The notes under the pieces were generated by a model. The model worked only from the letters and a program-made list of their open reading frames with translations, ran no database searches and had not been told where the DNA came from. Shown here piece by piece: positions 5,515 through 60,572 of a stretch of DNA of 64,000 bases (position 1 is the first letter of the stretch; each line of letters opens with the position of its first letter). Source of the DNA: Ostreococcus lucimarinus. Taxonomy: Eukaryota. The position numbers and the translations under genes are program-made. Where the stretch lies: NCBI GenBank assembly GCA_000092065.1, contig CP000594.1. One strand, written 5' to 3'.

Positions 5515-5655
5515 TTAGTATGAACACCAGACGACCGCCGGCGCGAGCTCCGTCTCCCCCGTTTACCCATTGTCCTTCAGCCACTCGAAGCACCCGTCGC
5601 GGTCAATTTCCCAATAGACGCCATTCTCGTCCCTAGCTTGCCTCAGGTGGTCCTC
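5515..5655 (-). pseudogene. C-terminal remnant of the primase-helicase (last 46 codons plus stop)
   Basis: Matches 16183..16320 and 44501..44640. It is cut off at the junction with the upstream-module repeat. Confidence 0.7.
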
Positions 5656-5889: not shown

Positions 5890-6366
5890 ATGCGTTGGCG
5901 CCGTCGACACTCGTCGACGCCCCGGCCCGCGGTCGTTCGCGTCCACACGGTTCAAGTAGTGCCCTTGGACGACGAACGTGCGCTTGTGCACCCTTGCGCG
6001 GATGAAGTGCGTTTCCATCGTGCGTCGCCGCCGTTCGGTCCTTTAAGGGCGACCGTAGCGCAACCGGGCGATCTCCGTGCGGACGGCGCGATGCCGGCGT
6101 ACGCATCGCAAGGAGTGCACACCGGGGGCACTGCGCCATTCGCGACGTACCGTGCAGCACAACACGCGTTTGCAACGCCAGACGGCATGCATTGGCGCGG
6201 TGGACGCAGCGTTTCATTGAAAATTGCGCGCAGCACTAGTGGGCAAAGCGGCTCGTTGGCACCCCAACGGGTCTTAAACACAATACTTGTTTTGTTCGGA
6301 TACTCGCCCAGGGATCTAGACACACGTGAGGGTAGTCGAAGGGCTAGCGTCCGGTGCCAAAAGAAC

Positions 6367-12300: not shown

Positions 12301-12597
12301 CAGGGCGTGGGACCGTTCTTGGCGATGATCTTCCCTGTTCAGAGAAACGAGTTGGGCGAGGTGAAGCAAACTGTGACACTCTCAGCCATAACTGTCCTGC
12401 TGACCATCATAATCACCGGGCTGCTTTCTATTCGTATCATTGTTTTCGTCGGCGAACGCGTCGCCGTCAAACGAAAGAAGATGGACATTGACAAGGATCC
12501 CGAGAAATGCATGCAAAATGTTCACAAACAACTGGTCAAGCTCGCAACCAACAGAGCGATTGTGAGCATGTTGCTTTCAAGGCAGATTTCGACATAA
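6367..12597 (+). CDS. Giant DUF285-repeat (BspA-like) cell-surface protein. It has a signal peptide, about 40 DUF285 units, Cys-rich EGF-like spacers and a C-terminal multi-pass TM region.
   Basis: The ORF is open from 5875 (GTG) and the first ATG is at 5890. A clear signal peptide 'MLFATATWMLLLLTSFVDGA' begins at 6367 and was chosen as the start; an upstream start or 5' intron is not excluded. The repeat 'AFNQxIGxWNTxxVTxMxxMF' occurs throughout. At least 7 hydrophobic helices follow aa ~1680 ('AAAAVVVVLAFCGF', 'FFVPALIFIIIVV', 'VIIQAAAAVMLAIVGIGMPIYVI' and others). Confidence 0.6.
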   Translation: MLFATATWMLLLLTSFVDGAIVDRDALKVAVDNCLAANATGNCDCSSDSVDCGTAGSLPISQWDTSRVNDMNRLFSNQGSFNANISAWDVSGVTDMTRMFEGANSFAQDISSWNVVNVTSMDTMFYRADAFNAPIGSWNTDGVTNMFQMFHSAHLFDQPIGSWNTERVTTMQCMFMYAREFNQDISSWNTANVVNMWDMFYSADAFNQNIGSWNTEEVTDMRYMFYSADAFNQNIGSWNTEKVTDLSGMFQGAAAFNQDIGSWNTEEVTDMSGMFQGAAAFNQDIGSWTTTSVKNMESMFEDATAFNQNISSWNVSAVTDFDRMFYTATAFNKGIITTKTTWTGATGASATDMFSAATAWLQRYEYTTNPSGSVVNGPASAWSVKKCSSNQYVLSNTCKACASGKFRSAGDDPDGSNTACTYASPFASNTQLKDTIESSYCLGGSDATGANCTDGKGMYIAQWDTSLITDMNHLFYNKISFDANISTWNTAKVTKMDSMFSQARAFNQRINEWNTSSVVTMEAMFRYAESFDQPIGEWNTGRVTNMKDMFSQASEFNQNIGNWDTSSVTTMDTMFRYTESFNQPISEWNTGRVTNMKDMFSHAYAFNHSIGDWNTGAVENMELMFQNTGVFNQDISSWNTAAVTQMDSMFYGASAFNYDITGWSSASLTSSTDMFLSATAWLARYKNTASPGSKNGPSSNWLGPGPFTTKSALETATWNCLAGSADADGNCDCTTVDCGAAVYESISNWNTSLITDMTGLFEGKSSFNANIGGWNTGSVTNMHQMFNGATAFNQDIGSWDVSDVADMYQMFGSASSFNQNIGSWNTGSVTDMSGMFMNASAFNQPVGDWNTGSVVDMSGMFESVSAFNQPIGEWNTGRVTNMKEMFSQASEFNQNIGNWDTSSVTTMDTMFRYTESFNQPISEWNTGRVTNMKDMFSHAYAFNHSIGDWNTGAVENMELMFQNTGVFNQDISSWNTAAVTQMDSMFYGASAFNYDITGWSSASLTSSASMFLDAPAWLARYKNTVASGSKNGPSSNWLGPGPFTTKSALETATWNCLAGSADADGNCDCTTVDCGAAVYESISNWNTSLITDMTGLFEGKSSFNANIGGWNTGSVTNMHQMFNGATAFNQDIGSWDVSDVADMYQMFGSASSFNQNIGSWNTGSVTDMSGMFMNASAFNQPVGDWNTGSVVDMSGMFESVSAFNQPIGEWNTGSVADMNGMFRSASAFNEPVGAWNTGSVTDMSGMFESVSAFNQPIGEWNTGSVADMNGMFRSASAFNQPIGEWATGSVADMSGMFESASAFNQPIGEWDTDSVTDMSSMFESASEFNYNITDWSSASLTTDMFLDATAWLGRFARKDGEDTTDGPPSKWGEPCGNEWYDATFEEKCEPRVNGIEVKGCNSTCGIKDNWRCDNFDLLRPPGDDLDSYNCTCDNPAGTYASPDLDCARTDCIYGERCLANGLGCAPGAGGNACDRCLTAADIAELPLNERSLSKNGYYKTGQMCTACPETSAGQLFAAAAVVVVLAFCGFKASQLMGAQATNNLKKIVESLQFFSLSLSMSIKWPGPVLNLGKYLEAFTFSIEFLRPECVATGLNWLNIFLSSVFFVPALIFIIIVVNNRRAKHRYKTTVRAIDSERHEDGETVYWIKKPGFLWGTRRAYESKGGDKIVRELQRQYRFRAALRSFGVLSLTVLYLPIVRMCLQSYDCIKIDGVDGLRLEHDIDILCESEGHVIIQAAAAVMLAIVGIGMPIYVIMQVRKIRLSGKLDDPQTIDSYGPFYDVYRREELTHDHKLEIASIRQTAVESSSFRRGEGTSDERPFDAATDDIAEEIANEARVDTEEDSSDVDRVDVEDDSDTPPPQKVASGLGKLARALTMTKSALGRTTSAKARERAHRMHWKDRFALHYLAVELVQKSCVILTTSPLVAETAVSGWALVVVHWFTGAFVYVCQPWRIMTLGFGKYKVRNCLNKVESLAGFLQGVGPFLAMIFPVQRNELGEVKQTVTLSAITVLLTIIITGLLSIRIIVFVGERVAVKRKKMDIDKDPEKCMQNVHKQLVKLATNRAIVSMLLSRQIST
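7962..9977 (+). repeat. Near-perfect 2 x 1008-bp in-frame tandem duplication inside the DUF285 gene (336 aa each)
   Basis: ORF-track artefacts 8321..8626 and 9329..9634 are identical in length and about 98% identical. The nucleotide text 7962–8969 repeats at 8970–9977. Smaller 126/252-bp DUF285 unit repeats follow to about 10330. Confidence 0.85.
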
Positions 12598-12641
12598 AGC
12601 GCCGTAAAGCACGCGCGAGGCTGGAAGATACCCGCCAAGCG

Positions 12642-14399
12642 ATGTTATCGCGCATCGATATCTTGAAGTCACAACAGACCGACGAGGACCATTCCGATAA
12701 AATTACCGCGTTGTACGAAGTGGCGAATGAAATGGCACACATCGTGAATACGATCGTACCCCAAGCACCCCCAACCGGTCCCAACGCAGAAGGGTCTATC
12801 GAATTGCTGGATGAACAACTGGCATCAATTCTCAAGGACGTCGACGTCCGAGCGCGGGCGAACGCGTTAGATGCCCCAAATTCTGCGGCAGTACATATCG
12901 TGATGAAAGTCCACGCGTTCGATACAATCATATGTCGACTTGACGAACATTTGCTCGAATTCGCGGCGGCAGAACTTGTGAGTGAGCTTGCCGAGCTGGG
13001 TCGAAGACACGCTGAATTACGACATACGCGAAGTTGTGTCGCGATAGGTTTCGGTGACGCAGAGCTTCGAGCTACTTTCGATGCGCTACGATCGTCTATC
13101 GAGACACTTCGCCATGCCGTTGAGAACGACGACTTCGAAGCTGTATTCACCACTTTGAATGGTGGGAAGGAGATCATTGATTCTCACTTACGATGGTGTC
13201 GGGATCAATGTGAATTGTTCAAGAGCGCCGAGGACGAGCACCCCGATTTCCTCGAGGACGAGCCTCCACTGACGACCAAGTTTTTCAAGGCGACAGTCAA
13301 GGTGATACAATCCCATGAAAAGCAACTGTCTAAATTCAAATCGGAGTGTATTCGTAACTGGCCCCCGCTTTTCAAGAACTTTGGCCGCGTCAAGTACATA
13401 CAAGGCTTTGCTGAGCAACTTCAGAATCAACTCCATCTCGATCTCAATGAAAGCACGCCGGAGGAGGCCAAGGCTGTTTTCGATCAGGTGTTGGCCTTCA
13501 CAGATGGCTTCGCGGTTTGGTGCGGCGATTTAGTGGCACAGGTCGAAGGCTCAGATGTCTTCATCTTGTTTGAGCCAATCGCCCGCGCGATGATGGAAAG
13601 CTTGAAAGCCATCAGAACAGACGCTGAGTCGCAAAGTGCACTCGCGAGGCAAGCATTGAGTATGATAGATTATGCGGTGACGCAACGGGCGTTGGCCGCA
13701 ACGACGCGATCGGGCTTGCAGACAGCACTCGCAGATGGTACGTCTGCGCTTGAAGACCAGCTCGCCGCAGAAATTGCACACATGGACGCTGCGAAGATTT
13801 CTCGAGAGACTACTTTCGAGACCGACAAGATGCGCATCGAGGAAGCTTTGACTACATCAGAGCAAGAGTCGGACGGTAGGCGAGCGGTTTTAGAGGATGA
13901 CATTCGATCGCAACAGGACACTATCGCGCGGCTACAAAACTTGAAACGGGAAGAGGCCGCGGCATCGAGCTCTATAAACCCGTTGAAATGGGAGCGTTTC
14001 AGTCGAAGCACTGAGCTCGCCGAAGCTGTAAGTGCACTCCGTATGAGCAAACAAAACTTGAAGAATGAAGAGCTTGCAAATGAGAAGGCCCGCGGGGATG
14101 CCCGTAAGGCTGTTCATTCGTTGGAACGGGGCCTGAAAAAGGACCTGGTCGAATGTGACGTCCGAGCAAAAAAAATCCGAGACGATGTGGCAAAGGAGCT
14201 GAAGAAACAAACTCTGGATGCTCAGAGGAAGACACCCGAAGACGCTAAAGCCCATAAGGCTAGTCTGGCTTCCAGGCGCGCGGTGTTCCAGCAACAACGC
14301 GCCGCCGCCAAACTCATCGCGAGCGAAAGTAGAGAAGCTACGCGAATCCAAGCACAGCTTGCATACTACATGCGAAATTTAAAGGCGCGCGAATCGTGA
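12642..14399 (+). CDS. Hypothetical coiled-coil protein
   Basis: 630-aa ORF from 12507 overlaps the end of the preceding gene by 90 nt. The in-frame Met at 12642 ('MLSRIDILK') avoids the overlap. It is rich in heptad-like charged segments with no recognisable enzymatic motif. The start is uncertain, and it could instead be a frameshifted or spliced cytoplasmic tail of the upstream gene. Confidence 0.35.
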   Translation: MLSRIDILKSQQTDEDHSDKITALYEVANEMAHIVNTIVPQAPPTGPNAEGSIELLDEQLASILKDVDVRARANALDAPNSAAVHIVMKVHAFDTIICRLDEHLLEFAAAELVSELAELGRRHAELRHTRSCVAIGFGDAELRATFDALRSSIETLRHAVENDDFEAVFTTLNGGKEIIDSHLRWCRDQCELFKSAEDEHPDFLEDEPPLTTKFFKATVKVIQSHEKQLSKFKSECIRNWPPLFKNFGRVKYIQGFAEQLQNQLHLDLNESTPEEAKAVFDQVLAFTDGFAVWCGDLVAQVEGSDVFILFEPIARAMMESLKAIRTDAESQSALARQALSMIDYAVTQRALAATTRSGLQTALADGTSALEDQLAAEIAHMDAAKISRETTFETDKMRIEEALTTSEQESDGRRAVLEDDIRSQQDTIARLQNLKREEAAASSSINPLKWERFSRSTELAEAVSALRMSKQNLKNEELANEKARGDARKAVHSLERGLKKDLVECDVRAKKIRDDVAKELKKQTLDAQRKTPEDAKAHKASLASRRAVFQQQRAAAKLIASESREATRIQAQLAYYMRNLKARES

Positions 14400-14883
14400 T
14401 ATAGCGGTCGTCTACGAGGAATACACGCATAGTCTAAACATGACCATCCTGTTGGAGAAGGAGCTGAGTTTCCGCTTCGTTACGGATGAGATTGTCGCGA
14501 GGAGATGAGCCTTCAAATTCGGGGCGATGGCTCACAAATCAGGCAAGGGAAGACAGGTGCACGTGCAAACTCTCAGCGGAAAGAGTTCATCGTCTCGAAG
14601 ATCTCGGTGTTTGGTGAGACAAACTCGACACACAGCAGGAGCACTTCACTGCCTGAGTGTACAGAAGATGTAACTAGCCTGAAGCGTTCGACCGTTGAGA
14701 CCTCAAGTTTTGGTGCCCTCGCTTAAGATTTCTTCAGAATAGAATCTCTGAAAGCAAGGGATGCTCAAAGCAGCAAAAATGACTTCCTACTACGGGCCAC
14801 ACAGGACGCCGAGCCCGATTTCTCTGTGCGTTCCGACCCCCCTTAACAGCGGACCCTTGGGTCTTAAGAAATTTCAACCTTTA

Positions 14884-14912
14884 AGGTTATAGGTTATATA
14901 GGTTATAGGTTT
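14884..14912. repeat. Short (aggttat)n-like microsatellite
   Basis: 'aggttataggttatataggttataggttt' read directly. Confidence 0.5.
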
Positions 14913-15261
14913 ATTTATAAAGTTTACATGTGACGTTTTTTTTCAAAAATGGAAAAAAAAGTGACGGAGAGAAAGTTCCTCACAGGACCTCCAACCACTA
15001 AACCCATAACCGGTCACTCTTCCTCGCCCCGTTCTTTGATACACGTTCGCCCCACGACGGTTCGACCTGAAATTTTTTTCGGTTTGGCTTCGAACCCGAG
15101 CTTGGTCAGCGCGCGTCCGATGAGCATCTTGCTCACGGTGCAGCCGTTAAAAATATCAACTTTTTTGTTTCAGTTGGGGCACCCCAACATGATAAAACGC
15201 TCATCGACGTTGATGTACCGCATGTACGATTTCTTCAGAACCAATCGTTCGAGTGAAGTGG

Positions 15262-15759
15262 TCAAACCAAGCCACGCAACTCATCTACCGTAAATTGATA
15301 CTTGTCGAGACTGCGCTTCGAAGGCAGCGTGCCGCGCGCTCGAGCATTCTTGAGACACGTCTTACGCAGTATTCTTTTCGCGTGCTGCTTGTAATAATTG
15401 AGTTGTCTGTAGTTACCATCGCCGCCGTCCCGCTTCGGCGTATATTGAGCTCTGCTGTAGGCCAGACTCTCGTCCACGTTCTCGTGGCACGCGTGTTTCC
15501 GACTGCGTCCAGGAACTCGGGAGTTGAATACGCCGTCGCGCTTCTCTCTCATGTATGCACTTTTACGTTGACGGAGCTCTCCAGCTGGAATGTCCTTTTC
15601 GAGAACTCTCACGTCCGCGTCGCCAAACGTGAAGATTGGATGCCGTGCGTATTTATGCGAGGCAAGGCGCGCTCTGAGCGAACCTGTCGTCGATCCGATG
15701 TACGTTTTGTCACATTTCGCATTATCGCTAAACATTTCGTACACGCATCCCGACGGCAT
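15262..15759 (-). CDS. GIY-YIG family nuclease, 165 aa
   Basis: Same motifs as 4584..5081. Confidence 0.8.
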   Translation of the reverse strand: MPSGCVYEMFSDNAKCDKTYIGSTTGSLRARLASHKYARHPIFTFGDADVRVLEKDIPAGELRQRKSAYMREKRDGVFNSRVPGRSRKHACHENVDESLAYSRAQYTPKRDGGDGNYRQLNYYKQHAKRILRKTCLKNARARGTLPSKRSLDKYQFTVDELRGLV

Positions 15760-15926
15760 TTGTCCTGGTTACCTGTCTATCCCTAAGAAAATATTGTTGT
15801 CAAAAGTCCTCCTGCTGCGGTTTGCAGTCGCATTCGAGAGACCGTATCGCTGCGTGGGCTGCAAGGTCTGGGATGTAGATATCGAACCGCCCGATTTCAC
15901 ACCTGGACGTTCGTGATCCGTCGAGA

Positions 15927-16117
15927 CCTGACGAAATGACGAACTTGTTTTGTCGTCCCGAAATTCGTCAGCCCGTCGTTCGGTCACACTTTGTGTGTAC
16001 CAATGATGAAAATGACGAAATGTTAAAATATTTTAATGTTTATTTTTATTTTAGATCTACGACAAGCAACAGTGTAGACCTTTATGAAAACAGTTCGTCA
16101 TTCGTCATTTCGTCAGG
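15927..16117. promoter_or_regulatory. Intra-element inverted repeat ('cctgacgaaatgacgaac' and 'gttcgtcattcgtcatttcgtcagg') around an AT-rich spacer, between the primase-helicase and GIY-YIG genes
   Basis: The arms are reverse complements at 15927..15944 and 16093..16117, with one extra heptamer in the right arm. The spacer contains 'atgatgaaaatgacgaaatgttaaaatattttaatgtttatttttattttag'. It is conserved in all three copies (5268–5460 and 44254–44440). Confidence 0.6.
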
Positions 16118-16182
16118 ATCCAAACCATGGTCTTTTCGGTGTCTTGTTGAGTCTTCATATTGCAAATGTACGAATCACAAAA

Positions 16183-18393
16183 TTAGTATGAACACCAGAC
16201 GACCGCCGGCGCGAGCTCCGTCTCCCCCGTGTACCCATTGTTCTTCAGCCACTCGAAGCACCCGTCGCGGTCAATTTCCCAATAGACGCCATTCTCGTCC
16301 CTACCTTGCCTCAGGTGGTCCTCGCGCATTGGGATCCTGTGGCCCTTTTCCTTCTTGAAGAAGTCCTTGAGCTTATTGCCGACCCTGGTCGCGCTATCTT
16401 GACCGCGCGTAGCCGCTGGCAACCACGTCTGGTATTCGATGAAGATGTCACTGTTGCGGATTTTATTTCCAACCCACTTCTCAGGGAATTCAACAGTGAC
16501 GCAATGCTCAAACCATCGAGTGAACTTGGGCATGCAGCCACGCTTCATTTCCGAATACGCGTCGGTCGTAGGTCTGTCTTTCACGTAGTCAAAAGTCGAT
16601 AGGTCGAGCCCCATGAGGTGGTCGTAGATCGCCCTCAAGTTCCTCAGATCCTTGATGTACACGTCGCGGAATTCCTTCAAGAATCCAGTCTGGTCGTTCA
16701 AGTGCGTGAGCAGTGGCTCCATAACGACGAACCGACGATCACTCATTTCCAGAAAAACGGGGTAGTCGTCGTTCGAGAAAAATAGGAACCCAACCAGATT
16801 CATGATGACGTACAGCTGCACGTGCTTCGGGTTGATTGTGAAACTCGTGTCCGTGAGCATCGATTTCAGCAACTTTCTATACATTTTCATGATGCACTCA
16901 TCTGCTTCGTTCAACGCGAGACACTTTTTGCCTTCAATCATGTTCGCATGCGTCCCAAATATGTCCTTTTTCGGATCAGCCGTCTCATGAAACGTCTTGC
17001 CCATGAGCGCATGAAGCAGGTGCAGGAAAGTGCCCTTGCCGGTACCTTGGACTCCTCGAAACACGAGCGACGTGATCGGCTTCTCTTCGGGTCTCTGGAA
17101 GAGACACGCGAACCAATTCAAAGCGTACTCGAGCGCATTTTCTGAACCGCCACATAGCACCAGGAGGAGCTCGAGGAAAGGCTTTACGTCGCCCTCTTTG
17201 CCCAGTTCACTGGGGATGCCTTCGACCGGATAGCCTCGCCACAGATTGTACGTCTTGTTGCTGCAGTTTTTCGGGACGACATCGAGGGTATCGTACACCC
17301 GTTTATTGTCGTCGTCGAGCCACTTTTCGATGAACCCGTTCTTCTTGCCTTTCCTCAAGACACCGTTCTCATCGACAAAGGAGAGTTCTCGATAGCGCCT
17401 CACCAAAGCGGCCTCGCTGAACTTGGTAATGTCCCCGGTGGTTCCATAACAGCTATCGTCGCAGAAGAGGTCCTTGGTTAAGATCTTTGCGACGTGCTTC
17501 TCGAACTCACGGCGGACCTCGATGTAGCCCGCAGACGTGCCCTCTTTGATTTCGTTCTGCTCCTTTTCGGTGATACCGGTCACCAAACACCCAACCTCAA
17601 AGCGAAACTGTCTGGGCTTGCAGTTGCCATGGTTTTTCACGGTGAGCACGCCGAGACCGACCTCGGCGACGTAAAAGTGATTCCCACCGCCCCTTCCATT
17701 GCCTTCGTGGAAGCCCCCACAGCAAGGACATTGGCCCACAGTGGTGCCTCGCTGTGGGCGACATTGGTCGCATTCAAAATCATACGATGTCGCTCCACTG
17801 AGCCAATGTATGCCCGTGAACCCCATTTCCTCGAGCAAAGGTGTCACAGATGCTTGCGTAAAGCTGCACTCCGTGTCCGCGCGTTCGACCTTGTGACCGA
17901 CTTTGCCATCAAGGAAACTGTACAAATCGTTGGGCATCGGTGGTAAATTGTTGATGTCGCCTCGGAGTAGCTCGTAGCCCGGGGCATCGGCACCGACCAC
18001 GTAGTTACCCGTCGTACGGATATCGACGAACCCTTCGATGCCCACCGTGCCTTTCCAATCGCCGAATCGTTCTTCGTCCCATGCGAAGTACGTGTGGTAC
18101 CCGCCTGATCGCGTTTTGACGATGTACGCGCCTTCCCCGCCAACCTTGCGCGTCAACATTTCTTCCGTCAGTTCAAACTCGCACTTGCCACCGTAACAAT
18201 CCCAGTCGATGACGAGGACACGGTTCGGTCGCCCTGTCAGCACGCCGTACATTTCTCCTGGGATGACTTTCTGCGTATTCTGTTCATAGTTTGCTTCATC
18301 GAGGAACCCTCTGCCGCATGTTGGCTCCTTGTTCTGGTCGAGTGGGATCAGATGCATGCCGTTCGTAAATTCTCTGGCGTCCATATATATCAC
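16183..18393 (-). CDS. Primase-polymerase (AEP/Prim-Pol) fused to a D5-like SF3 helicase, 736 aa
   Basis: AEP motifs are present: 'VLVIDWDCY' (DxD), 'SGGYHTYF' (motif II His) and 'VDIRTTGNYVVGADAPGY' (motif III). A Cys4 Zn-ribbon 'CDQC...CPCCGGFHEG' follows. Walker A is 'GVQGTGKGTFLHLL', Walker B is 'KKCLALNEADE', and SF3 motif C is 'FFSND'. Confidence 0.85.
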   Translation of the reverse strand: MIYMDAREFTNGMHLIPLDQNKEPTCGRGFLDEANYEQNTQKVIPGEMYGVLTGRPNRVLVIDWDCYGGKCEFELTEEMLTRKVGGEGAYIVKTRSGGYHTYFAWDEERFGDWKGTVGIEGFVDIRTTGNYVVGADAPGYELLRGDINNLPPMPNDLYSFLDGKVGHKVERADTECSFTQASVTPLLEEMGFTGIHWLSGATSYDFECDQCRPQRGTTVGQCPCCGGFHEGNGRGGGNHFYVAEVGLGVLTVKNHGNCKPRQFRFEVGCLVTGITEKEQNEIKEGTSAGYIEVRREFEKHVAKILTKDLFCDDSCYGTTGDITKFSEAALVRRYRELSFVDENGVLRKGKKNGFIEKWLDDDNKRVYDTLDVVPKNCSNKTYNLWRGYPVEGIPSELGKEGDVKPFLELLLVLCGGSENALEYALNWFACLFQRPEEKPITSLVFRGVQGTGKGTFLHLLHALMGKTFHETADPKKDIFGTHANMIEGKKCLALNEADECIMKMYRKLLKSMLTDTSFTINPKHVQLYVIMNLVGFLFFSNDDYPVFLEMSDRRFVVMEPLLTHLNDQTGFLKEFRDVYIKDLRNLRAIYDHLMGLDLSTFDYVKDRPTTDAYSEMKRGCMPKFTRWFEHCVTVEFPEKWVGNKIRNSDIFIEYQTWLPAATRGQDSATRVGNKLKDFFKKEKGHRIPMREDHLRQGRDENGVYWEIDRDGCFEWLKNNGYTGETELAPAVVWCSY

Positions 18394-18695
18394 ATAAGAA
18401 AAGAATTCTTTAAGCCGTGTTTTTCCTGGTCACATCGGCGCGATGACTGATTTTCAAGTTTTTCAACAGCCTGGAAAAGCACGCCAGCGCGCCCCACTGG
18501 TCAACGTTTTGCCACTTTTTCGACGAGATCGGGGTACTGCAAAGCACACGGCGAAGACCCGAGAGATCAGCAGATCGACGAACTCCGCAGTGAGCTCAGT
18601 GACATCGTGTCAAGACTGGAGGCGGTGGAGAGCGCCTAATCATCGTTTTTCTATATCGCGCCATTCGTGGACAACAAAATATACGTCCACATATA

Positions 18696-19693
18696 TTAAC
18701 TCCCCGTGCTTGCCTCGTCCAAATTGGCATCGCCCATGCGCCGTCGAAGCGAAGACGTGTCATCTCCCGAACCACTGAGCGCCTTTAGCGCGCCCTCTAC
18801 GCCACGAAGCGCGCTGTAAAGAAGGTCTTGGGCGCCAACTTTGTTGTACCAATCTTGGAAGCTTTTGCACGCACAAAATTGCTTCTCAGGTCCCCATTCA
18901 GGCTGCCACTTTGGTACGTTACACTGACCATAACCATCATAGTTAACGTATCCATCAACGCTGAGGTTACTGCCATCGCAGCCAATGACACCCACAGGAT
19001 GAACAATGAAGCTACTTGAGCCACTTCGGTGGCCAACATACTGGGGTGGACATGACCCATAATTCCCACGATAATTCCACAGTGTGAGCCTCTGTTGTTC
19101 CATTTTCGCCTCGTAGCTGCGCAACGCATCGCTCAACTCCTCGAGGTTGCGTTCCAAAGATACACTAGTCCTTTTTCTTTTGTGTTGCTGGAGTTGTTCA
19201 GAGGCGTGTTCTTTTATGTCGGCAATTTTATCGGGCAAGCCTTTCAAATCTGCGATAACCGCATCCACATCGGCGCACATCGCGTTCAATGAATTGTCTT
19301 TCTCTTTTAATTTCGCACGAGTGTCCTCGATGTGCTGCGGGATAACCGACCGTCGCGTTTCGGAGATATTCTCGTCTTGTAGCTGCGCTTCCAGAACTCG
19401 GATATCTTTATCGATGCGCTCTACGGTGCGAAGATAACTCGCCCGTAAGAGGCGCTTGAACTCCTCGAGGCCGTCGGGCGTCGGTTTGTCATACTCGTCT
19501 CGTGATCTGGCGAATTTCTCGTAGCATGGGTCCTTGAAGAATGGCTTGTTCTTGTACGAGCGCTCGAGATCATCCTCCGCTGTTTTGACCGCCTCTGACT
19601 CCGCCGTGCCGTTCATCCAGTCCGGTTGCAGCGACGGGTCTAATGAGTTCGTTCTCCATGTCGGTGAGGCGTGCGCGACTGAATCGGTCATCG
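18696..19693 (-). CDS. Hypothetical protein with a coiled-coil N-terminal half and a Cys-containing C-terminal half
   Basis: ORF 18696..19769 starts inside the conserved upstream box via TTG. The first ATG, 'MTDSVAHASP', is at 19693, about 60 bp downstream of the 27-bp box, the same spacing as gene 36586. Confidence 0.4.
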
Positions 19694-19719
19694 CGTGCGT
19701 CGATGAGTGGCGCCGACAC

Positions 19720-19749
<30 letters not shown>

Positions 19750-19751
<2 letters not shown>

Positions 19752-19753
19752 GC

Positions 19754-19786
<33 letters not shown>

Positions 19787-20125
19787 TTGTCGATTTTTAA
19801 CACGTTTACAGTGGAACCTCTGCGGTTTTTGACGCCTAAACCCTAATTTCTAAACCCTAATGTGTAAATACGAGTACGACGTTTCATTAACCCATACGAG
19901 TACCCCCGAACGACGAGTCGTGACTCATACGGTAAAAATATCACGTCCCGCCGGTCCGGTCCCCATATACTATGGAATTTATGCTATTCAGCCCGCGCAA
20001 ACAGTCGGGTAGATTACTGTACAGTAATCTACCCGTATCTTACTGTACAGTAATCTGTGCGCGGAATCAGTAATCTGTACCCGGAATGACGCGGGATGTG
20101 GCGTAATCTATACCCGACATCCCGT
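19750..20125 (-). promoter_or_regulatory. Conserved upstream module (copy 2), with telo-box-like AAACCCTAA x3, a perfect 18-bp palindrome GATTACTGTACAGTAATC and the 27-bp terminal box
   Basis: Read directly. The palindrome is at 20012..20029 with a second 14-bp palindrome at 20040..20053. 'ctaaaccctaatttctaaaccctaa' is at 19846..19868. Confidence 0.55.
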
Positions 20126-20437
20126 GTTCTGTACACTGTGGGGCTTCAGGCCGCCGAGTATGATTAAGCCTATTTTGCATCACAATTGTCGGTCTACTCT
20201 TAACATTTGGCGGACTCGCGTTACATGCTATTCTGATCGAGTGGAATTTTCCATAGTTATTGTCCGTATGTTGAACGGCCCTCTCTTAAGATTGGGTGCG
20301 CATCTGAAGCGAGGCTTCCAGGATCTGAACAGTCGTGTACAGGTGGTTCGGTTAACGGCGTCTTCTGTACCCTCAGGTGGCGAACTTCATCTCCAAGATA
20401 TCAGGTTTTTGTGCCAAAACACACTCACTTCTTCGAC

Positions 20438-23400
20438 TCAACGGCTTGATTCCAAGGTCGAGCCGTAATCATACGCTCGCGAGCCTACGAACACCGCATC
20501 GCACTCGTTTATTGGCGCGCGTCGCGACTTACGACGTACAATCGCCACAAACGCAACAAAGGTAAACATCGCAAGGTACAGAGTTAATGTGAAGGGTCGA
20601 GGCGCCCCCAATCTGGCTCTCGACTGTTGCACGGCGTTACATTCGCACAGTTCCAATGCCTTGCTTCGTTGCTCGGCATTTTTCCAGTTACGCGTGAAGC
20701 TGACATTAAAGTTTGCGACTCCACGAAACATTTCGTCGACGTTCGCGTCAGCGCTCAATACCCACGAATTCAGATCTTGATTGAAACTTTTGGCGAAAGC
20801 AAACATCCGATGAAAGCTCTTGACGTTGGAGACGTTCCAATCGCTTAGGTTTTGATTGAAATTTCGATTGTACGCGAACATTTCTGACATGTCCGTAGCA
20901 GACGCCGTGTTCCACGCACTGATGATGGTCGCCGCCGTCGATCCAACGCCATTCAGACTATCGTAATGTGTTTGAAATAGACTTCTGAAATTCCTCACCT
21001 CACTTGTATCCACCATGTTTAGAGGCCCAAATCTACAACAGTAGCTGTACTTCGAGAAATTCGACCCCATGCAGTTACTCCGAGCTGACTCTTGGCTTCG
21101 GCAGGAGCGTATCACTTGGTATAAACTCGAACGATCGCCACGAAGTGGTGATAAACCTTGCGCCGTACCAGAATACGCAAAGAGATCTATAAACTGTTGA
21201 TGATCGCTTCGGTGAGTATTGACTTGTTTTTCCTTGATATTTTCGGCAAATGACGGCGAACGATAGCTTGGATTCAGAAAGTAGGTGGAATGGAACATCC
21301 CGTAAGCGGTCGTAACCGAGGAAACATCCCACGTCCACTTTCGCAAATCGCGCGAGAATGCGCGCGCGCCATTGAACATGTATTGCATGTTCTGAACTTT
21401 TTTCACGTTCCATGACGACAAATCCTGATCAAAACTTGTCGCATATTGAAACATTTTCACCATCGTCCCGACTTGCGCGACATTCCAAGATCCGATTGAC
21501 GCGTTGAAGTCTCTCCGATTTTGGAAAAGTTCATTCATGTTCGTTACCCTACTGACATCCCACGTCTCCATGGTCCCAAACTGTAAGTCTCGACACATAC
21601 CTCCGACGGGATCGACTTCCAAACATTTATCTATGATATCATCGATGTTGTCGTTATCGATGTGCTCCATAACTTTGGTTTCAGCGATTTTCGGTTTCCA
21701 ATTGCACGGGGGGCCATGTCTCATGTTCGACTTGCTGATTGAGACGAGTTTGAAATCGAACGAGCTCCGTCTGCCTCTTGCATAGTGACTGAACCATTTG
21801 GTAACGCGAACTTCGTCCTTCAATGCGTACTTCACCTTCCACGCGGCGGCGTTCAGGAACATGTCACCCACGATTGGCTGCAGAACGGTCGATTGCGACG
21901 TTGCGTGCTGGGCGAGACAAACGTACTCGCCTCGAACGGCAGCTTCGCCGCGGCCCCAATTTGTAATGTCGGCATCAAACATCCAAGCGTCGTCAAACAT
22001 TTTATAAAAGTCTGTGACTGATCTCACGTTCCAATCCCCCAAGTCTCCGTTAAATTTATAGGCGTTGGAAAACATCTGGTTCATGTCTTCAACCTGGGCG
22101 ACGTTCCAAAGTTTCAAAGAGCCCCGGAATCGACGCGCGCCGTAGAACATGCGGAACATACTCGTGACTGAAGCAACGTTCCAGTTTTCGATATTGCCAT
22201 TGAAGTCGCGTGCGCCCGAGAAGGCTTCAGACATATCGAACACACCTGAAGTATTCCAGGTTGACATCGCGCCATACTTGGAGTCGACGCAAGCGCCATC
22301 AGTGGGATGTGTCTCCAAACATTTGCCGACGGCGTACAAGAAATTACCTTGATGTACTTCGGCGAAGGTTGATGAATTCGTTGAGTTCTTGCTCGTTGTA
22401 GGCACGGTGCACTTAGCTGGCGAAGCACGATTTGGTTTCTTCGCCAACCCAACACAGTCGACATCACCATATATGGCGTGGCGACCATATTTCCCGTCTT
22501 TGTCGCGCCCCCACTTGTAGCCAATTTTCGTATTGTATTCCAGGCAAGTGCGCGGCTTGCAGGTCCACTTCGACACGGGACCAGAGAGAGACCACGTTCT
22601 TCTACGTTCGTGGCCTTCGCGCGTGCATGCCTCAAGCCAGGCCGTCGCAAGACCAAACATATTGGCACTCCCCAACCTGTCCAGACTCGCGGAATCCCAC
22701 TTGGAGATATCTTGCGCAAACTTCGACGCGCCGTAAAACATCCCCTCCATATTGTACACGTTGCGTACGTCCCAATTGCCAATGTCTTGATTGAAACTCG
22801 AAGCGCCTTGAAACATGCGCAACATAAATGTTACGGAACTCACATCCCAAGCAGATATATCGCCATCGAACTGGTCTCTGCCCTTAAATGCCTCGCGCAT
22901 GTCGGTGACTCGGCTTACGTCCCAGCCAGACATACATCCGTGTCTAAATCCAGAGCAGTCTCCGTACTTTGGGTCTTCACTCAAGCATTCTTCAATCGCA
23001 TCATAGAAGACAGCATTTTCAATGTTTACGTGCTTTCGTTTCCAAACAATCGGTGGTCCATCACTTTTCCCTCCGACGGCGAGAGGATCGCGATAAAACT
23101 CCATTTGAAACTCCGTGATGCCGTCGAACATCTTCGTCGAAACTTCCAACGAAGCCGTCGACCAAGAAGTGACATCAGGAAAGTCTGGGACCACTACTCT
23201 GGAAAACATCTCGCGCATGTTTTTCACTTTTCGCACATTCCAGTGCGATATCTCTGATGGGATCTTTCCAAAGCGAACGCCCTTGAACATCATTTCCATA
23301 CTTGTAGCCGAACTCGTGTCCCATGAAGCAAATCCTGAAGGCAAGCGGGTAGTGCGATATCGCGATGAAAACATGCTCCTAAAGTTCGTTATACCAATGG

Positions 23401-26400
23401 TGCGCATGTTGGATACATCGCAGGTCGTCGACACGGGTGAATTCAAACCAGAAAACATGGAATCAGCATCGACGTTTGATCCGAAACTCCATGAGATGTT
23501 GACATCCGTGCACTCAGAACCCTTCATCATTGCCTTGATATCATTGGCAGAGTCTAGTTTCCACGCGCTCGCTTGACGAAGAATGGGTGGTTTTGAGAAA
23601 GCAAACGCGGATTGCATCTTCTGAACTCGTTTAGGATCCCATTTGCCAAGACCGTCGATGGCGTCGTGACCAATCCGAGCAAATGCAAGCTCCATGCTCT
23701 TCACATTCCTCACGTCCCAAGAACCAATATCGCCGATGCGTCCTTGATTTGTCATTTTGAAGAATATTCCGTCCATGTTGGTGACCGAGGAGACATCCCA
23801 ATGTTTGAACATATTGTGCCAATCACGCCCCAGACCACTGAAGGTGAACCGCATGCTCCGCACGCTACTTACATTCCACGCACCCAAGTTACCAAAAGTC
23901 GCTCCCGGTAGAATGACCACAGTGCGTGGAACATCTAATCTGAAACGCGTTTCGGAATGCGAAGATGCCTTCCATTCTCCCGTATCATTGAAATACCGTT
24001 CTCCATATCTGAAAATGTGGTAATTATAGCGCTGCATGAACATTGCATCCATGTTCACGACTGAACTCGTGTTCCACTGTGACAAGTCGCCCACGTCGCC
24101 TTCAAAATCCTCAAACATCGCACCCATGTCCGTCACGGAGCTCACGTCCCATCTCGACAGGTCACGTGAAAAGTTGGGCGCGTCCTTGTATGCAGCACCA
24201 AACTCTCCAGGGCTTGCTTGAAAGAATTTCCATCGCAAACATACGTAGCCGAACGTTCGGTAATGTCCCGGAAACGCGGCTTGGTCAAACTGAAAGTGGT
24301 TAACAGTACCAATTTTGAACGCGTACGACATGTCGGTTACTCGCGAGACATCCCATTCTGACATCGGCCCGTATCTCAATTCGCATGTCGTTAAATTCTT
24401 TCTGCATGCGATGATCGCGGTATAGAAATCATCATCTGTACGAGTCAAGTTGAGTGGTTTGGATACCAGAGCGCTCAAAAGTCGGCGTCCAAGTGGAAGC
24501 CGAACAGGATCGTCGATACTTTTACCCAAACGTGCGCTGACGCTCATCGCCGGCGACTTGGCGGAGGTGAGCTCCTCTTCGAGCCTTCGCAGCTTGGCCC
24601 GCAAACCTACAAGCCCTCGGTTCCTCGGATTGCGAGCCTCGATCCGCGCAATTTTTGTGCGGAGCTTTGTCATTTCCGGCGTCGGGCTCGGTGGCGGCGG
24701 GCTCGGACTTGTCGACGGCGTGTCGCCGAAGAGCTCCTCTTCGAGCCTTCGCAGCTTGGCCCGCAAACCTACAAGCCCTCGGTTCCTCGGATTGCGAGCC
24801 TCGATCCGCGCAATTTTTGTGCGAAGCTTTGTCATTTCCGGCGTCGGGCTCGGTGGCGGCGGGCTCGGACTTGTCGACGGCGTGTCGCCGAAGAGCTCCT
24901 CTTCGAGCCTTCGCAGCTTGGCCCGCAAACCTACAAGCCCTCGGTTCCTCGGATTGCGAGCCTCGATCCGCGCAATTTTTGTGCGGAGGTTTGTCATTTC
25001 CGGCGTCGGGCTCGGTGGCGGCGGGCTCGGACTTGGTGTAGTCGTCAGATAATCGATCGATGAGCTCGGCGATTGACTCGGACTCGGCGAGCTCTTCTCT
25101 TCGTCAGCGTCCTCCTCTTCGTCAGCATGTTCGACTTCGTCTTTGTCTGCCTCTTCGTCCTCCTCTTCGTCTGCATTGTAAGGCGATGGACTCGGACTCG
25201 GCGAGCTCTTCTCTTCGTCAGCGTCCTCCTCTTCGTCAGCATGTTCGACTTCGTCTTTGTCTGCCTCTTCGTCCTCCTCTTCGTCTGCATTGTAAGGCGA
25301 TGGACTCGGACTCGGCGAGCTCTTCTCTTCGTCAGCGTCCTCCTCTTCGTCAGCATCTTCGACTTCGTCTTTGTCTGCCTCTTCGTCCTCCTCTTCATCT
25401 GCATTGTAAGGCGATGGACTCGGACTCGGCGAGCTCTTCTCTTCGTCAGCGTCCTCCTCTTCGTCAGCATGTTCGACTTCGTCTTTGTCTGCCTCTTCGT
25501 CCTCCTCTTCGTCAGCATTGTAAGGCGATGGACTCGGACTCGGCGAGCTCTTCTCTTCGTCAGCGTCCTCCTCTTCGTCAGCATGTTCGACTTCGTCTTT
25601 GTCTACCTCTTCGTCCTCCTCTTCGTCAGCATTGTAAGGCGATGGACTCGGACTCGGCGCACTTGCTTGTGCGTCGATACCTGTATATTCTGGTTCATCG
25701 GATGGCGTGTAGTTCTGAAATGGTTCATACGAATCTGTGGTTGTATTCGTTTTACTCGACGCAGCACGATGACCGATGGTATCCGCGTCGACCTCAAAAC
25801 TAAAATTGCCATTAAGACGGAAACTGGACTCCTTAGAGTCAAGAATTGCTTGGTCGTCGTCACTCACGGATACTTTATCGAGAATTTTGAGCGAATGTAT
25901 CGTTGGTAGCGGAGCACCTAGTACACTGCGGCGTACGTCATGAAGACGATCGCGAGTGGACAGCAAACGACGGTGACTTGGGCTCGTGGCAGTACACATC
26001 TTGAACAGTTTCTCGTCGTGCAATGACGAATATAGTACCTTTTTGCTTCGGGCGAGCACATCAAAGCTTGAAGTAAGTAGCGCGTCTAAATGACTCGGTA
26101 TACCAACGCCCCTCACGGACGTTAACAATTCAAACGAAGAAGCTCGTGGCGGTAAACTTTTCAGCTTTTCACGCCTCGCCCACGGGAGAGGCTTGGCAAG
26201 GTCTACCATTTCTTCCTCACCGTCTTCATTTTCGCATTTCCCATCGTCGTCGTAGACGCACATTTGACAGGTTGTCTCGTTGATGCTTGCTACATACTTG
26301 AGCGGTAGTTCGGGCAGTACAATATTCTGTAAAAAGCCAGTCACGTTTCCCACGATACTCAAACCCTGCTCTGAATCGGGATATTTCCCCCAGAAATTGA

Positions 26401-29400
26401 GCACCGGTTTGACGTGAAGATCCAGAAGGGTCCCGAATCGACTCTTCACATCACGCGCACCGTGGAAATTACTCTTTGATCGGTTCACCATGGCGTACAA
26501 AGGCCGAAGCGCATCTGTTGGCTCGACAAGTCGAGTTTCACATTCACCCCATGCCGCGCGAATCAAATCTTCGTACACATACGTCACATCCGATGTGTTG
26601 AACCATTGGCGTTTGCAATTATGATTCAGCGTGTGCAGCATCCATTTTCGCGCTTCGATATCGCAGAACGGCCGAGTAACTTGAATGACATCCTCCATGA
26701 GAATTTTGTGTATCTCTGGGTCCTCTTTGCATTTTAATGTCATAGATACTGAGCGTATCATCTTGTAGAATGTGCTCGGGTAATACATCGCGTGTGGGCG
26801 AAATACGGCGTACACACGCTTGATGAGGGTTTGATTCGTGATTGACGCCACGTCGATGTGGTTAATGAGCGTCTCCCAAGCCTCGATGTTGTGTGGATTC
26901 GATTCTAACGCTGAGAGTAAAATCGCACCGACGCGATCGACAACTTGAGCGCCAGCATCCATGTACACGTTCTGGAACAAAAGCATCGCCAAGCGCGTCT
27001 CAACGTACGAATCCAACCCTTTGCTTACCGCTCTTGAAAGTGCACGGACATGGTCGACGGAAACGATGGCATTCTTCTTCACACCTGGCGCGTTACGATG
27101 TTCCAAAATACTCAACGTCGTTCTCGCAAACGTCGAGTTGGTGGGCCAATGCAGTGGTACCGTACGCCACAAGCGCGAGAGTTCATCAAATTTAAAGCTA
27201 ATACCTCCAGGAATGGCTCCCCTCTTTTTGGAAACTTTCGTCGGGATCCCGAGACATGTTTGCATACCGATGGACAGATAAGCGATCATCGCGGCGTCAC
27301 CGCCGTCTTGAGCGATCCGTGGAAGAGAATTCGGGTGCCAGTTTGACGCCTTGCATAGAGTTTCCGCGCGTTCGGTGACGTTTGCGTGATTCAACCTCAA
27401 CCAAGTTGTATTGAGATTCCTTCTGCTGGCAATGTGCATGCATTCACTCGTTGGAAAGTGCGCACCAGCGTGCATGGCTACGACTGGCCACGGAATTCGA
27501 CCAAAATTCATCGCTCCGTTGACGTTTGCATTCAACGTGCTGTGCATGTAGTGAATTGCCTGGAGCGGACTCGGATTCAATTCTCGACTTCCTGGCATGG
27601 CCAATGTCCCATTTATGAGCTTCTTCCTGATTTCACAGACATCGCCGACTTCTTCATCCCGAGACTGATCCAAAAGCGTTGAAGTAGAGTCTGCGATGAA
27701 ATTCATATGACGATAATTGAAAGCTGTCGCAAGGATAGCATCGGATATGTTCGCGGCATCACCTCTAAAATAATTTGCCAAATATCGCACGTGATCCAAC
27801 GCTTTCATGTGCGTCGGCATCGTTAGACTATAAAGTGCTTTTCGAAACGAAACGCCTTGGCTTAACTTGGTGTGTTCTATCCATTCCCAAATAGGGTCGC
27901 TCTGCGGTATTCTCGTCAGCCGCTTGCTGAGACGCTCGTTGGATTCGAGAACTTGTTTTGAAAGCGCCTCACTCCAAGCACCCTTTGCATTTTGAACAGC
28001 AATCAAGAGCTCGTCTTGTGGAAACGCTGTGAGGAAACCACGACGCATAAATGTGTGCTCAGCAGAAATGTCCGAACGTGATAGAGAGGACAAATCAAAT
28101 TGAAGATGATGAATGAGCCGACACGTACCCGCGGCCGCAAACCCAATGAAGACGAATCCTGGGCACTTGGGCGTGTTCATACACAGAGAAGAGCACACAT
28201 CGACGGACACAGACACCGGCGACACTGGATAACTCGTCATCGTCATTTGCGGGAGGAGAACAAAATGAGTTGCAGCCGCTCGTCGCGCTGTGGTGTTCCA
28301 TGCGTGCGGTAAATCCATGATCGGTGTTGACCCTGAGACGCTGATTCTCGGCCGCGAGCCTTTAAACAGATTTGAGGAGCACCCTGTCTGTTGTTCCGAG
28401 GGTTTTGTCACGGGGTCGCAGACGACATCGCAATGCGCGTCTTCGTCATCCCTTCGAACACACTCTACGTCACGAATACGGATGCCGTTGATGCACGCGC
28501 CCCACGTAGTTTTCACGCGCCAGGACGCGCCTACACATCTGGGAATCTGAACATCGCAAGCGCCAGTTTCACCGCGTGTCCAACCATTCAAGCAGGTACA
28601 CTTGTAGTCGTAAGTCCAAGGTTTCGTGTCGTGATAATGTTTCTCACATGCGCCATTCGCGCACGACGTTGCGCCTCTTCTGGTTAAAGAGCAAGCTTGA
28701 GGAGGACACTCTTCACGCGTGTTGCAACTCCGAATACTTTCTGGCCTCGCGAGGGGACATAGAGCGCTTCTGGCGAGAGTCCCATTGGCATACGTACACG
28801 ATAACGATCTGACTTGAAAGGGCCGAGCGTCGTAGTCCAAAGTAGCACACTGTGCGCTGCACTCGCCATATGGCATACTGATCCAGTCAGCGTCGTCTCG
28901 TGGAGGCGGCGCGTAACATTCACGTTCGCGAAAATCTGTCATGATTACCCCGTCAGGTCGAGGGACAAAGCAACATCCATGATCTTCGCATACCAAAGCA
29001 CGAACTTCAGGGCTCGTGGAGCCCCGTCGATCATCGCTCTCGTAGCCAGCACACACCATTCTTCCGGAGTCTTGTCTACACTGCGCATCGCAATGGAAAT
29101 GATTACAGAATTCCTTTTCAGTAGGCTTTTCTGCGTGCGTACAGTGATCATCGGGCAGCGTTATATTTGTGCCTCTTTCGTCTTCGTGCGAGCACCAGAC
29201 CCTACGAATGCGCACTCCACCACCACACGATTTGGAACAAGAGGTAAAAGGGGAGGATTTCCAACGCACGAATTTGAGCTTTGTGAAGAAGCTTGACTGG
29301 ACGGAACTCACCACGAATTCGCGTAGGCCGTCGATCGTGACTGGGTGTTCGTACTCGACATTCGTGTACAACGTTGATCCAGATTCGCTCTCAATCGGCT

Positions 29401-51304: not shown

Positions 51305-51342
<38 letters not shown>

Positions 51343-60535: not shown

Positions 60536-60572
<37 letters not shown>

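Follow-up and report, generated by a model that had tools for sequence, protein, structure and literature searches.

Palindromes in a low-GC island of Ostreococcus lucimarinus are head-to-head joints of repeat arms that exchange partners in natural populations

Results

The subject of this paper is a group of palindromes at four places, here called A, B, C, and D, in a 64 000-nucleotide stretch of contig CP000594.1 of Ostreococcus lucimarinus, which we call the window. From position 1 to about 51 200, the guanine + cytosine (GC) content is about 50–52%, and to the right of that it is 55–80%. The open reading frames (ORFs) at 51–64 kb encode RbfA-like, mitochondrial carrier, ABC-F, HECT, MIF4G/MA3, and MRP-S28 proteins, and the ABC-F protein is in the same 90%-identity cluster as XP_001421483 of O. 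lucimarinus CCE9901. The left part encodes giant intron-less DUF285/TSP1/tectonin proteins of 2240, 5156, and about 2136–2163 amino acids (aa), together with ferritin, several proteins without known domains, and three copies of a primase-helicase repeat. The contrast in GC, together with the gene content, shows that the window is a low-GC variable island beside the Ostreococcus core genome. Palindrome D (51154–51174) is the exact border between the two; within a few hundred bases of it (~51165), the GC content steps from about 50–55% to 60–80%, and the 3′ end of the RbfA-like gene is only ~50 bp away.

A sequence-only reading of the window had pointed to an 18-bp perfect palindrome, GATTACTGTACAGTAATC, at 20012–20029, a 14-bp version, TTACTGTACAGTAA, at 20040–20053, near-copies gattacagtacagtaat at 36229–36245 and gattactgtactgtacagtaa at 51154–51174, and a half-site, gtacagtaatc, at 5817–5827. 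All of these were confirmed at those positions. The perfect palindrome around GATTACTGTACAGTAATC is longer than first noted, with a computed extent of 30 bp at 20006–20035 and halves CGGGTAGATTACTGT and ACAGTAATCTACCCG. The recurrence is far above chance, as had been claimed, since TTACTGTACAGTAA with up to two mismatches has five matches in the window, compared with 0.06 expected, a number reached by none of 100 shuffles. Similarly, the 9-mer TACWGTAAT (W is A or T) has seven matches, with 0.21 expected, and all are within the four palindrome places. The palindromes are in upstream regions, mostly between divergently transcribed genes, and an upstream cassette exists as described, with ~170–390 bp common to 5649–5871, 19751–20130, and 36130–36520, the last one inverted. 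The inverted repeats CATCCCGCGC and GCGCGGGATG, which were said to bracket each site, hold up in part. They are exact on both sides only at 36216 and 36261 (span 36216–36271); the brackets at 19989 and 20089 read CAGCCCGCGC and GACGCGGGATG, and at 51131 and 5798, the left bracket alone is present.

The 22-nt sequence GTCCCGCCGGTCCGGTCCCCAT, which recurs next to the palindromes, was searched in JGI metagenome contigs and was found in 30, often at contig ends, with many of the contigs breaking off within the repeat. Because this core is 45 bp away from the palindrome, alignment on it gives an unbiased view of the palindrome. In all, 50 related metagenome contigs (labeled L0xx) were surveyed, and 45 distinct arms were collected. 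These show that the palindrome is the head-to-head meeting point of two arms of a dispersed Ostreococcus repeat family. The general form of a joint is ...GGGGGTAGATTACTG–TA–CAGTAATCTACCCCCG..., with one TA between the two arms. Each arm consists, in order, of C(A/T)GTAAT, a variable 10–14 nt, GCGCGGGATGA, CATAAAT, and a TATA-like box, so the bracketing inverted repeats are the next conserved block of each arm. The shared start is ~55 bp long, and behind it are different bodies, which we class as types 1–4. What is conserved here is a dispersed repeat, with arm lengths of 55 to ~450 bp and copies 75–95% identical, and not a short motif amid diverged flanks.

The type-1 arm always reads ...CATCCCGCGC–(10–14 nt)–GGGGGTAGATTACTG–TA, and the sequence beyond the TA differs from copy to copy. 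In L009, an inverted type-1 arm follows ...GATTACTG–TA. At eight loci, the partner is an inverted type-2 arm, CAGTAATCTACCCCCGGGATAGCGCGGGATGATAGCCATAAATCAATTAATATATG..., the same type as the left side of window site D, and in L008, L011, and L020, it is a type-3 arm, CCTAGTCTACTGACGGAAT (GTAC/CCTAGTCTAC). A type-4 arm, CAGTAATCAAAGCGCGGGATGTTGCC...TATATAAAG, is the partner at the left of window site C and in L014 and L034. Solo arms, with unrelated DNA beyond the TA, were found in L015, in L054, and at L034:5966, where the arm begins within the stop codon of the preceding ORF. The homology of arms standing alone ends at the central TA (L015, L034:5966, L054, and L008/L011), and the solo arms are TA-flanked in three of three cases.

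On the far side, the type-1 arm has telomere-like CCCTAAA units, the 23-nt box GCTAAACCCTAGCAAAAATCGAG (the T-box or telo-box), and a conserved leader of ~55 nt that ends close to the ATG of very different genes. The intact arms have TATA-like boxes, and the gene start is 70–350 nt from the joint, with transcription directed away from it; the distances from joint to ATG are 72 nt for the right arm at A, 330 for the left arm at B, 328 and 348 for the left and right arms at C, and 197 for the left arm at D. The degenerate right arms at B and D, two of the eight half-joints in the window, face gene 3′ ends. The TATA-like boxes and the direction of the genes make it probable that the arms double as portable promoters. 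The CCCTAAA/TTTAGGG units and telo-boxes are at 5845–5867, 19755–19777, 19835–19862, 36497–36519, 48651–48682, and 48762–48785. The telo-box sits about 65–90 nt upstream of start codons, and the leader that follows has a CTCCG...CGGAG stem. The box and leader are also upstream of unrelated genes in many metagenome contigs, and at 48651–48682, two telo-boxes form an inverted repeat of their own (AAACCCTAG...CTAGGGTTT). In other strains, a MOV10/UPF1-like helicase and a 1242-aa nucleotide-diphospho-sugar transferase are among the cargo genes beside arms (L034, 9522–12200; L022, 9298–13023). In L022, the core genes Lon and BipA are within 13 kb of an arm, so the arms are not limited to one island.

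In the window, joints A, B, C, and D divide the island into segments of 14.2, 16.2, and 14.9 kb (5819–20019, 20022–36236, and 36239–51161), each between inverted arm termini; L034:5966–9503 is a further segment with inverted termini at both ends. Joint B is double. In the 30-bp palindrome B1 (20006–20035), the left arm ends ...GGGTAGATTACTG, the central TA is at 20020–20021, and CAGTAATCTACCCG follows. The second palindrome, B2, is TTACTGTACAGTAA at 20040–20053. Between the two central TAs is the 24-bp sequence CAGTAATCTACCCGTATCTTACTG (20022–20045), with CAGTAA and TTACTG ends and TA on both sides, which looks like an internally deleted mini-element. Arm B-L (type 1, 19692–20019, minus strand) has the terminus CAGTAATCTACCCGAC..., CAGCCCGCGC at 19989, a TATA-like box, the invariant core at 19945–19966, CCCTAAA repeats at 19835–19862, the telo-box at 19755–19777, and the leader, and it ends at the ATG (19691) of a 331-aa gene (18696–19691, minus strand). 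In arm B-R (20022–20126, plus strand), degenerate arm termini are repeated three or four times (CAGTAATCTGTGCGCGGAAT, CAGTAATCTGTACCCGGAATGACGCGGGATG, and CGTAATCTATACCCGACAT); this array is about 300 bp past the stop (20438) of the 5156-aa gene. The same sequence, identical, is joined to the left arm of D in L037, L038, and L043.

Joint C (36229–36245) reads GAT TA CAG TA CAG TA AT, with the central TA at 36237–36238, and is a non-palindromic W variant. Arm C-L (type 4, 36020–36236, minus strand) has CTGTAATCAAAGCGCGGGATG..., a 9-bp hairpin, and the box TATATAAAG; it forms the promoter side of the 5156-aa DUF285/TSP1 gene (ATG 35908), and arms of this type head other genes in L034 and L014. 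Arm C-R (type 1, 36239–36585, plus strand) begins CAGTAATATAACCCCCGCCAATGCGCGGGATGA..., has the core at 36293–36315, the telo-box at 36497–36519, and the leader, and leads to the 2136-aa tectonin/discoidin gene, which starts with the ATG at 36586. Joint D (51154–51174) reads GAT TA CTG TA CTG TA CAG TA A. Arm D-L (type 2, 50969–51161, minus strand), CAGTAATCTACCCCTCGAATTGCGCGGGATGATACCCATAAATACATTAATATAC..., is the promoter side of a 596-aa cysteine-rich gene (49178–50968, minus strand), and D-R (51169–51195, plus strand) is a remnant terminus, CAGTAACCCTCTAGTAGAAC..., on the core-genome flank, where the RbfA-like gene occupies 51223–52422 (minus strand). At joint A, arm A-L (type 1, 5649–5816, minus strand) lacks its final 10 nt at the joint, and its outer end is also truncated, meeting a truncated copy of the primase-helicase repeat. 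Arm A-R (5817–5871, plus strand) consists of TA, CAGTAATCTATGTGTCCGACATTAA, and an inverted telo-box (5845–5867), directly upstream of the 2240-aa DUF285 ORF (5875–12597). A look-up of the 122-aa ORF beside A-L found no record. An extra type-4 arm (48780–48870, minus strand) has a TATATAG box, a hairpin, and AAATCCCGCGCTTTG; it is without the terminal ATTACWG and abuts another repeated module.

All joint centers fit the pattern TA(C[A/T]G TA)n. In the set of 18 distinct two-arm joints, n is 2 in 15 (as in C), 1 in two, 3 in one, and 0 in none, and the solo arms have exactly one CWGTA unit. Thus, each arm ends ...CTG or CAG..., and two arms share one TA. The perfect palindrome CTG/CAG dominates, and CTG/CTG is found in about seven joints, including window joint C. 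The spacing of the half-sites is, therefore, not fixed, with n = 1, 2, or 3, and W is variable; n is 3 in joint D and in L010. Remnants of a lost partner were seen beside some arms, amounting to 5 nt (CAG + TA) in L023, in L025, and at L034:9492, and to 12–13 nt in L017 and L033.

What do these features say about the function of the palindrome? The sequence-only reading had argued that so long and conserved a promoter palindrome is the operator of a homodimeric transcription factor. In this explanation, the operator is at the center of bidirectional promoters of co-regulated island genes, and the repeats and rearrangements are incidental. The joints are indeed all upstream of genes or between divergent genes, the intact arms have TATA-like boxes with an ATG within 70–350 nt, and the terminal TACWGTAAT is invariant in arms that were retrieved through the separate, unrelated 22-nt core. 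Furthermore, genes of the O. tauri outlier chromosome have been reported to share regulation (PMC5082852). However, the half-sites function as units alone, the spacing varies from n = 1 to 3, and there are hybrid type 1/type 3 joints. The homology of an arm ends exactly at the center, the conservation spans hundreds of base pairs of repeat, and of the eight half-joints in the window, two are turned toward the 3′ ends of genes. Three features that define such an operator are lacking, namely, conservation of the motif on its own, a fixed spacing, and half-sites that occur in pairs. The argument from palindrome length and conservation fails for a repeat family with separable halves, variable spacing, and partner exchange, and we consider an operator improbable. 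The palindrome is very probably recognized by some protein, and putative regulatory binding is no longer needed to account for its conservation. Palindromes in these promoters should not be taken as transcription factor sites without checking for repeat ends.

A second explanation is palindrome fragility, in which the arms extrude as cruciforms or hairpins, a structure-specific nuclease cuts the tip, and each broken center is rejoined to another, as in the human t(11;22) translocation mediated by palindromic AT-rich repeats (PATRRs). Strong DNA hairpins are predicted at joint B (−26 kcal/mol, z = −8.0) and joint C (−19 kcal/mol, z = −4.9), and the breakpoints are at palindrome centers. The slight variation in center length would also fit, as would the occasional remnants and deletions (joint A, for example, has lost 10 nt). 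The dyad symmetry, however, consists of perfect palindromes of 12–30 bp at B, and the C and D sites are imperfect. Since the half-sites differ between arm types past the terminal TACWGTAAT, most joints are merely 12–18 bp palindromes. With imperfect arms, this is short for cruciform extrusion. There is no near-perfect palindrome of 200 bp or longer, since the similarity between arms extends over ~55 bp only, and the two arms of a joint often differ in type. The joints are also much more precise than is usual for end-joining, and fragility leaves unexplained the solo arms with their sharp TA boundary and the spread of the arm family. This explanation also appears improbable to us.

Public assemblies were queried for exact matches to the proteins encoded beside the arms. 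One and the same arm joins different partners in different samples, on DNA 98–100% identical to the window, with five partners for D-L, four for C-R, and two each for B-L and A-L. The 596-aa gene behind D-L is on nine contigs from independent JGI, ENA, and TARA assemblies, which are 99.5–99.96% identical to the window up to the joint. The partner is the core-genome flank of the window (D-R) in L036 and window 20040–20569, that is, arm B-R, at 100% identity in L037, L038, and L043. In L039 and in L040/L042/L044, the partners are two type-4-like arms, and in L041 the partner is a type-2 arm with n = 1. The 331-aa gene behind B-L is joined to D-R in five independent contigs (L046–L050) and in L031, and the 60-mer across this joint is identical in all of them. 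In three other contigs (L045, L051, and L052), the same gene has a different upstream region, without the type-1 arm and telo-box; homology breaks off at the outer boundary of the 23-nt box and begins at CGGTTTTCC in the leader (window 19692–19750). Thus, the outer edge of the arm/telo-box unit is likewise a sharp polymorphic boundary.

The 2136-aa gene behind C-R has the same partner as in the window in L055 and L056. In L058, the partner is again the same, with TACTGTA (n = 1) at the center instead of TACAGTACAGTA. A type-2-like partner is found in L053, L057, and L059, a filler-containing joint in L054, and GC-rich DNA with a 13-nt remnant in L017. In L014 and L034, arm A-L has an intact terminus, a type-4 arm as its partner, and a different gene.

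All four combinations of the B and D arms were found: B-L/B-R and D-L/D-R in the window (the latter also in L036), B-L/D-R in five independent assemblies, and D-L/B-R in three. Compared with the simple products of a B × D exchange, window joint D has an extra CTG + TA (relative to L031 and L046), and window joint B has the extra 24-bp CAGTAA...TTACTG remnant + TA. The four junctions imply a 31-kb insertion/deletion and are those expected if the segment 20040–51168 is present, absent, and circular, tandem, or relocated. Assembly chimeras are ruled out as their source, since the same 60-mer junctions recur in two to five independent assemblies. At the exchange point, no more than ~21 bp is common to the partners, and the contigs were built at k = 119–141, so repeat-induced chimeras are not involved. 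These results show that the joints are exchange points of large structural variants in natural populations.

If dispersed copies of a promoter repeat recombined ectopically by ordinary homologous recombination, exchanges could arise without any role of the palindrome itself. The arms share 55–400 bp at 75–95% identity, and homologous recombination has been reported in Ostreococcus (PMC5082852). However, the exchanges are always in the central 12–21 bp, even when at least 170 bp of homology is at hand (A vs C), and they also occur between partners that share only the center (type 2 vs B-R, type 4, and D-R). This confinement to the center, even between otherwise unlike partners, makes ordinary homologous recombination very unlikely, the least probable of the explanations that we considered.

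The confinement of exchange to the core would also fit a site-specific recombination site of the tyrosine type (Crypton- or integron-like), in which inverted ...GATTA and TAATC... elements surround C(A/T)GTAC(A/T)G, an 8-bp core where crossover takes place. The recombinase, with its gene located elsewhere, would then exchange, invert, excise, and integrate cassettes conservatively. The four B/D junction types are att-like, the joints are mostly precise (n = 2 in 15 of 18), and both variable W positions are within the putative 8-bp overlap, as heteroduplex repair predicts. L034 compared with the window resembles the outcome of recombination between inverted sites A and C, and ...GATTA [CWGTACWG] TAATC... 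has inverted elements around a short core, although this resemblance is structural only. On the other hand, no integrase or recombinase domain was found in any scanned ORF, comprising those of the window and 71 from related contigs. The 5-nt and 13-nt remnants, the n = 1 and n = 3 centers, and the 24-bp mini-remnant at B are unexpected for conservative recombination, and the presumed binding elements beside the core vary with the arm type. We regard a site of this kind as unlikely, though not negligible.

Several other repeats were seen in the island. The giant intron-less ORFs at 5875–12597 (2240 aa) and 20438–35908 (5156 aa) are full of DUF285 ('PARCEL') repeats, with periods of 75 bp and about 1 kb at 6727–10372. 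The larger ORF additionally has a thrombospondin type-1 domain and, at 24551–25773, near-perfect tandem repeats of 162 bp (three copies, 94%) and 114 bp (five to six copies, 98–99%). Horizontal mobility has been proposed for the PARCEL genes of Ostreococcus (PMC2996958). The primase-helicase repeat, ~3.4–3.7 kb long and 94–97% identical, is at 15148–18558, at 43389–47116, and at 4335–5657 plus, inverted, 1667–3095. Its products are a 736-aa Prim-Pol + DUF5906 (D5/P4-like primase-helicase) protein and those of two further ORFs, one of 165–269 aa that matches GIY-YIG weakly and one of 140 aa. The repeat has the look of a mobile element, virus- or plasmid-like, that replicates itself. In copy 1, which is split and inverted in part, the truncation falls exactly at the start of arm A-L (5656). 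A TATATA-rich module of 141 bp occurs twice, at 47181–47321 and 48868–49008, with copies 90% identical. One copy follows the primase-helicase repeat, and the other abuts the type-4 arm that is without its terminal 7 nt; the module also adjoins arm fragments in L021, L026, L030, and L035. Trinucleotide runs were found in coding DNA, (GCT)n and (GTC)n at 51245–51345 and (GAC)n at 60528–60574. The run to the right of joint D varies in length among strains, and L046 and L047 are 88–96% identical to the window there.

Discussion

The explanation that we favor, with belief and doubt in about equal measure, is that the cassettes are bounded by the inverted ends of a Tc1/mariner-like, TA-targeting element family, and that these ends serve as the breakpoints of the rearrangements. 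The ends known for Tc1, pogo, and Sleeping Beauty are 5′-CAGT termini flanked by TA, with CAGT being the usual Tc1/pogo end, and TA-C(A/T)G-TA is the canonical excision footprint of Tc1 and Sleeping Beauty. The arms would be terminal inverted repeats of this origin, given their CAGT terminus, TA target, and C(A/T)G + TA footprints. A transposase supplied in trans would act on pairs of ends, so that promoter-plus-gene cassettes would be inserted, excised, or re-paired whole at the TA next to existing ends. Cassette arrays with palindromes at the joints would be the outcome, and the palindrome would be two enzyme-binding ends back to back. The extra CTG + TA at D and the extra 24 bp + TA at B would be leftovers of repeated insertion and excision at a shared TA.

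The termini are consistent with this proposal. The 45 distinct arms begin C(A/T)GTAAT, and segments are bounded by such termini in inverted orientation. TA flanks every end, including the three solo ends, and it is also part of the conserved GTAC center. Further support comes from the sub-terminal direct repeats in arm B-R and from CAGTAATCTACCCGTATCTTACTG, with its CAGTAA and TTACTG ends. Tc1/Mariner elements have been reported in outlier regions of O. tauri (bioRxiv 10.1101/2025.04.21.649811).

Several points weigh against Tc1/mariner-like ends. Since the TA belongs to the conserved GTAC center, it cannot be proved to be a target duplication. Comparison of the scanned ORFs with Pfam, PHROGs, NCBIfam, and PDB sequences gave no transposase or recombinase, and no DDE/D transposase with an N-terminal helix-turn-helix was seen among them; this search covered the ORFs of the window and 71 from related contigs. 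The cargo consists of ordinary-looking host genes (DUF285, tectonin, ferritin, and glycosyltransferase), and the cassettes, at up to 16 kb, are well above the typical Tc1/mariner size. No single insertion was seen alongside its empty site in non-arm DNA. The D-L/B-R junction could be a tandem duplication or another cassette order rather than an excision product. Finally, the n = 1 and n = 3 centers and the extra CWG + TA can also come from 5-bp slippage plus a point change.

Some other candidates were rejected. The idea that all of the central CWGTA units are accumulated footprints conflicts with the absence of n = 0 joints, the dominance of CTG/CAG, and the exactly one unit of the solo arms. 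The neighboring 357/331-aa and 596-aa ORFs are not transposases, as they encode a coiled-coil protein and a cysteine-rich membrane protein without transposase domains. PiggyBac-like ends for the type-3 arm (TA/CCCTAG...) were discarded because the flank is TA and not TTAA. A structured RNA or tRNA-derived element is not indicated, since neither Rfam at gathering thresholds nor ARAGORN had a hit in the window. A viral origin was likewise dismissed: The 18-mer matched one IMG/VR contig by chance, within a T4-like capsid gene, and the arm core and the arm terminus had no match in IMG/VR.

A more ambitious proposal, which we put forward only tentatively, is that Ostreococcus has a system dedicated to the shuffling of cassettes. 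Its enzyme, a recombinase or a domesticated transposase of the Tc1/mariner type, would recognize the 18-bp joint ATTACWG-TA-CWGTAAT and would insert, excise (possibly as circles), invert, and reorder promoter-bearing cassettes in low-GC hypervariable islands. If this is true, the system would be a eukaryotic counterpart of integrons or shufflons, and it could be the unexplained mechanism of the rapid outlier-chromosome restructuring with virus resistance in Mamiellales.

The low-GC 'outlier' DNA of Ostreococcus and its relatives is hypervariable among strains and rearranges within days as virus resistance evolves. Hypervariability, large inverted repeats, enrichment in transposable elements, and end-joining-like fusions have been described for Ostreococcus outlier chromosomes (including Yau 2016, a 2026 paper in Genome Biology and Evolution on O. 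mediterraneus, and a Hi-C preprint). In this literature on Ostreococcus outlier chromosomes, we found no description of the arm family or the palindromic joints, and in the literature surveyed, no defined mechanism or sequence signal has been reported for the rearrangement of outlier DNA. We read the joints as transposon-end or recombination joints that organize promoter-bearing gene cassettes. Being short, well defined, and easy to search for, they mark places where differences of tens of kilobases between natural strains have been demonstrated, so the question of mechanism becomes testable.

How do these joints compare with known systems? Like the ends of Tc1/mariner/pogo (IS630-Tc1-mariner) elements and Stowaway-like miniature inverted-repeat transposable elements, they have 5′-CAGT ends with TA directly outside, and inverted ends that bound a segment. 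The 5-bp C(A/T)G + TA additions correspond to the canonical footprint, and there are repeated sub-terminal motifs (CGCGGGAT and CCGGAAT). They differ in that no transposase was found here, in that 0.8–16 kb segments carry host-type genes and their own promoters inside the ends, and in that the ends are nearly always directly against another end, with the TA only a putative duplication. Foldback (FB) elements also have inverted ends made partly of short tandem sub-repeats, as in arm B-R. In the alternative ('reversed-ends') transposition of Ac/Ds or P elements, the ends that act together come from different copies, and the deletions, inversions, and translocations that result have breakpoints at the termini. 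Those superfamilies, however, have their own signatures, such as the 8-bp duplications of hAT and P, whereas here the ends abut with a single TA.

The human PATRR11/PATRR22 translocations are similar in that recurrent rearrangements have their breakpoints at the palindrome centers of different loci. The PATRRs are several hundred base pairs long, AT-rich, and near-perfect, with junction deletions, while the palindromes here are 12–30 bp long with mostly exact joints. Homodimeric transcription factor operators share the dyad symmetry and the upstream location, but not the variable spacing, the separable halves, or the mobile, repeated module. Lox/FRT sites, integron attC/attI arrays, and shufflons have short inverted elements around a 6–8 bp core and, as here, cassettes placed end to end. 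The likeness extends to the four reciprocal junction types in the population and to the cassette order and content, which differ among strains. In contrast to lox sites, integrons, and shufflons, the joints described here are in a eukaryotic nuclear genome, with no recombinase seen, with footprint-like additions and remnants at the joints, and with a promoter of its own for each cassette.

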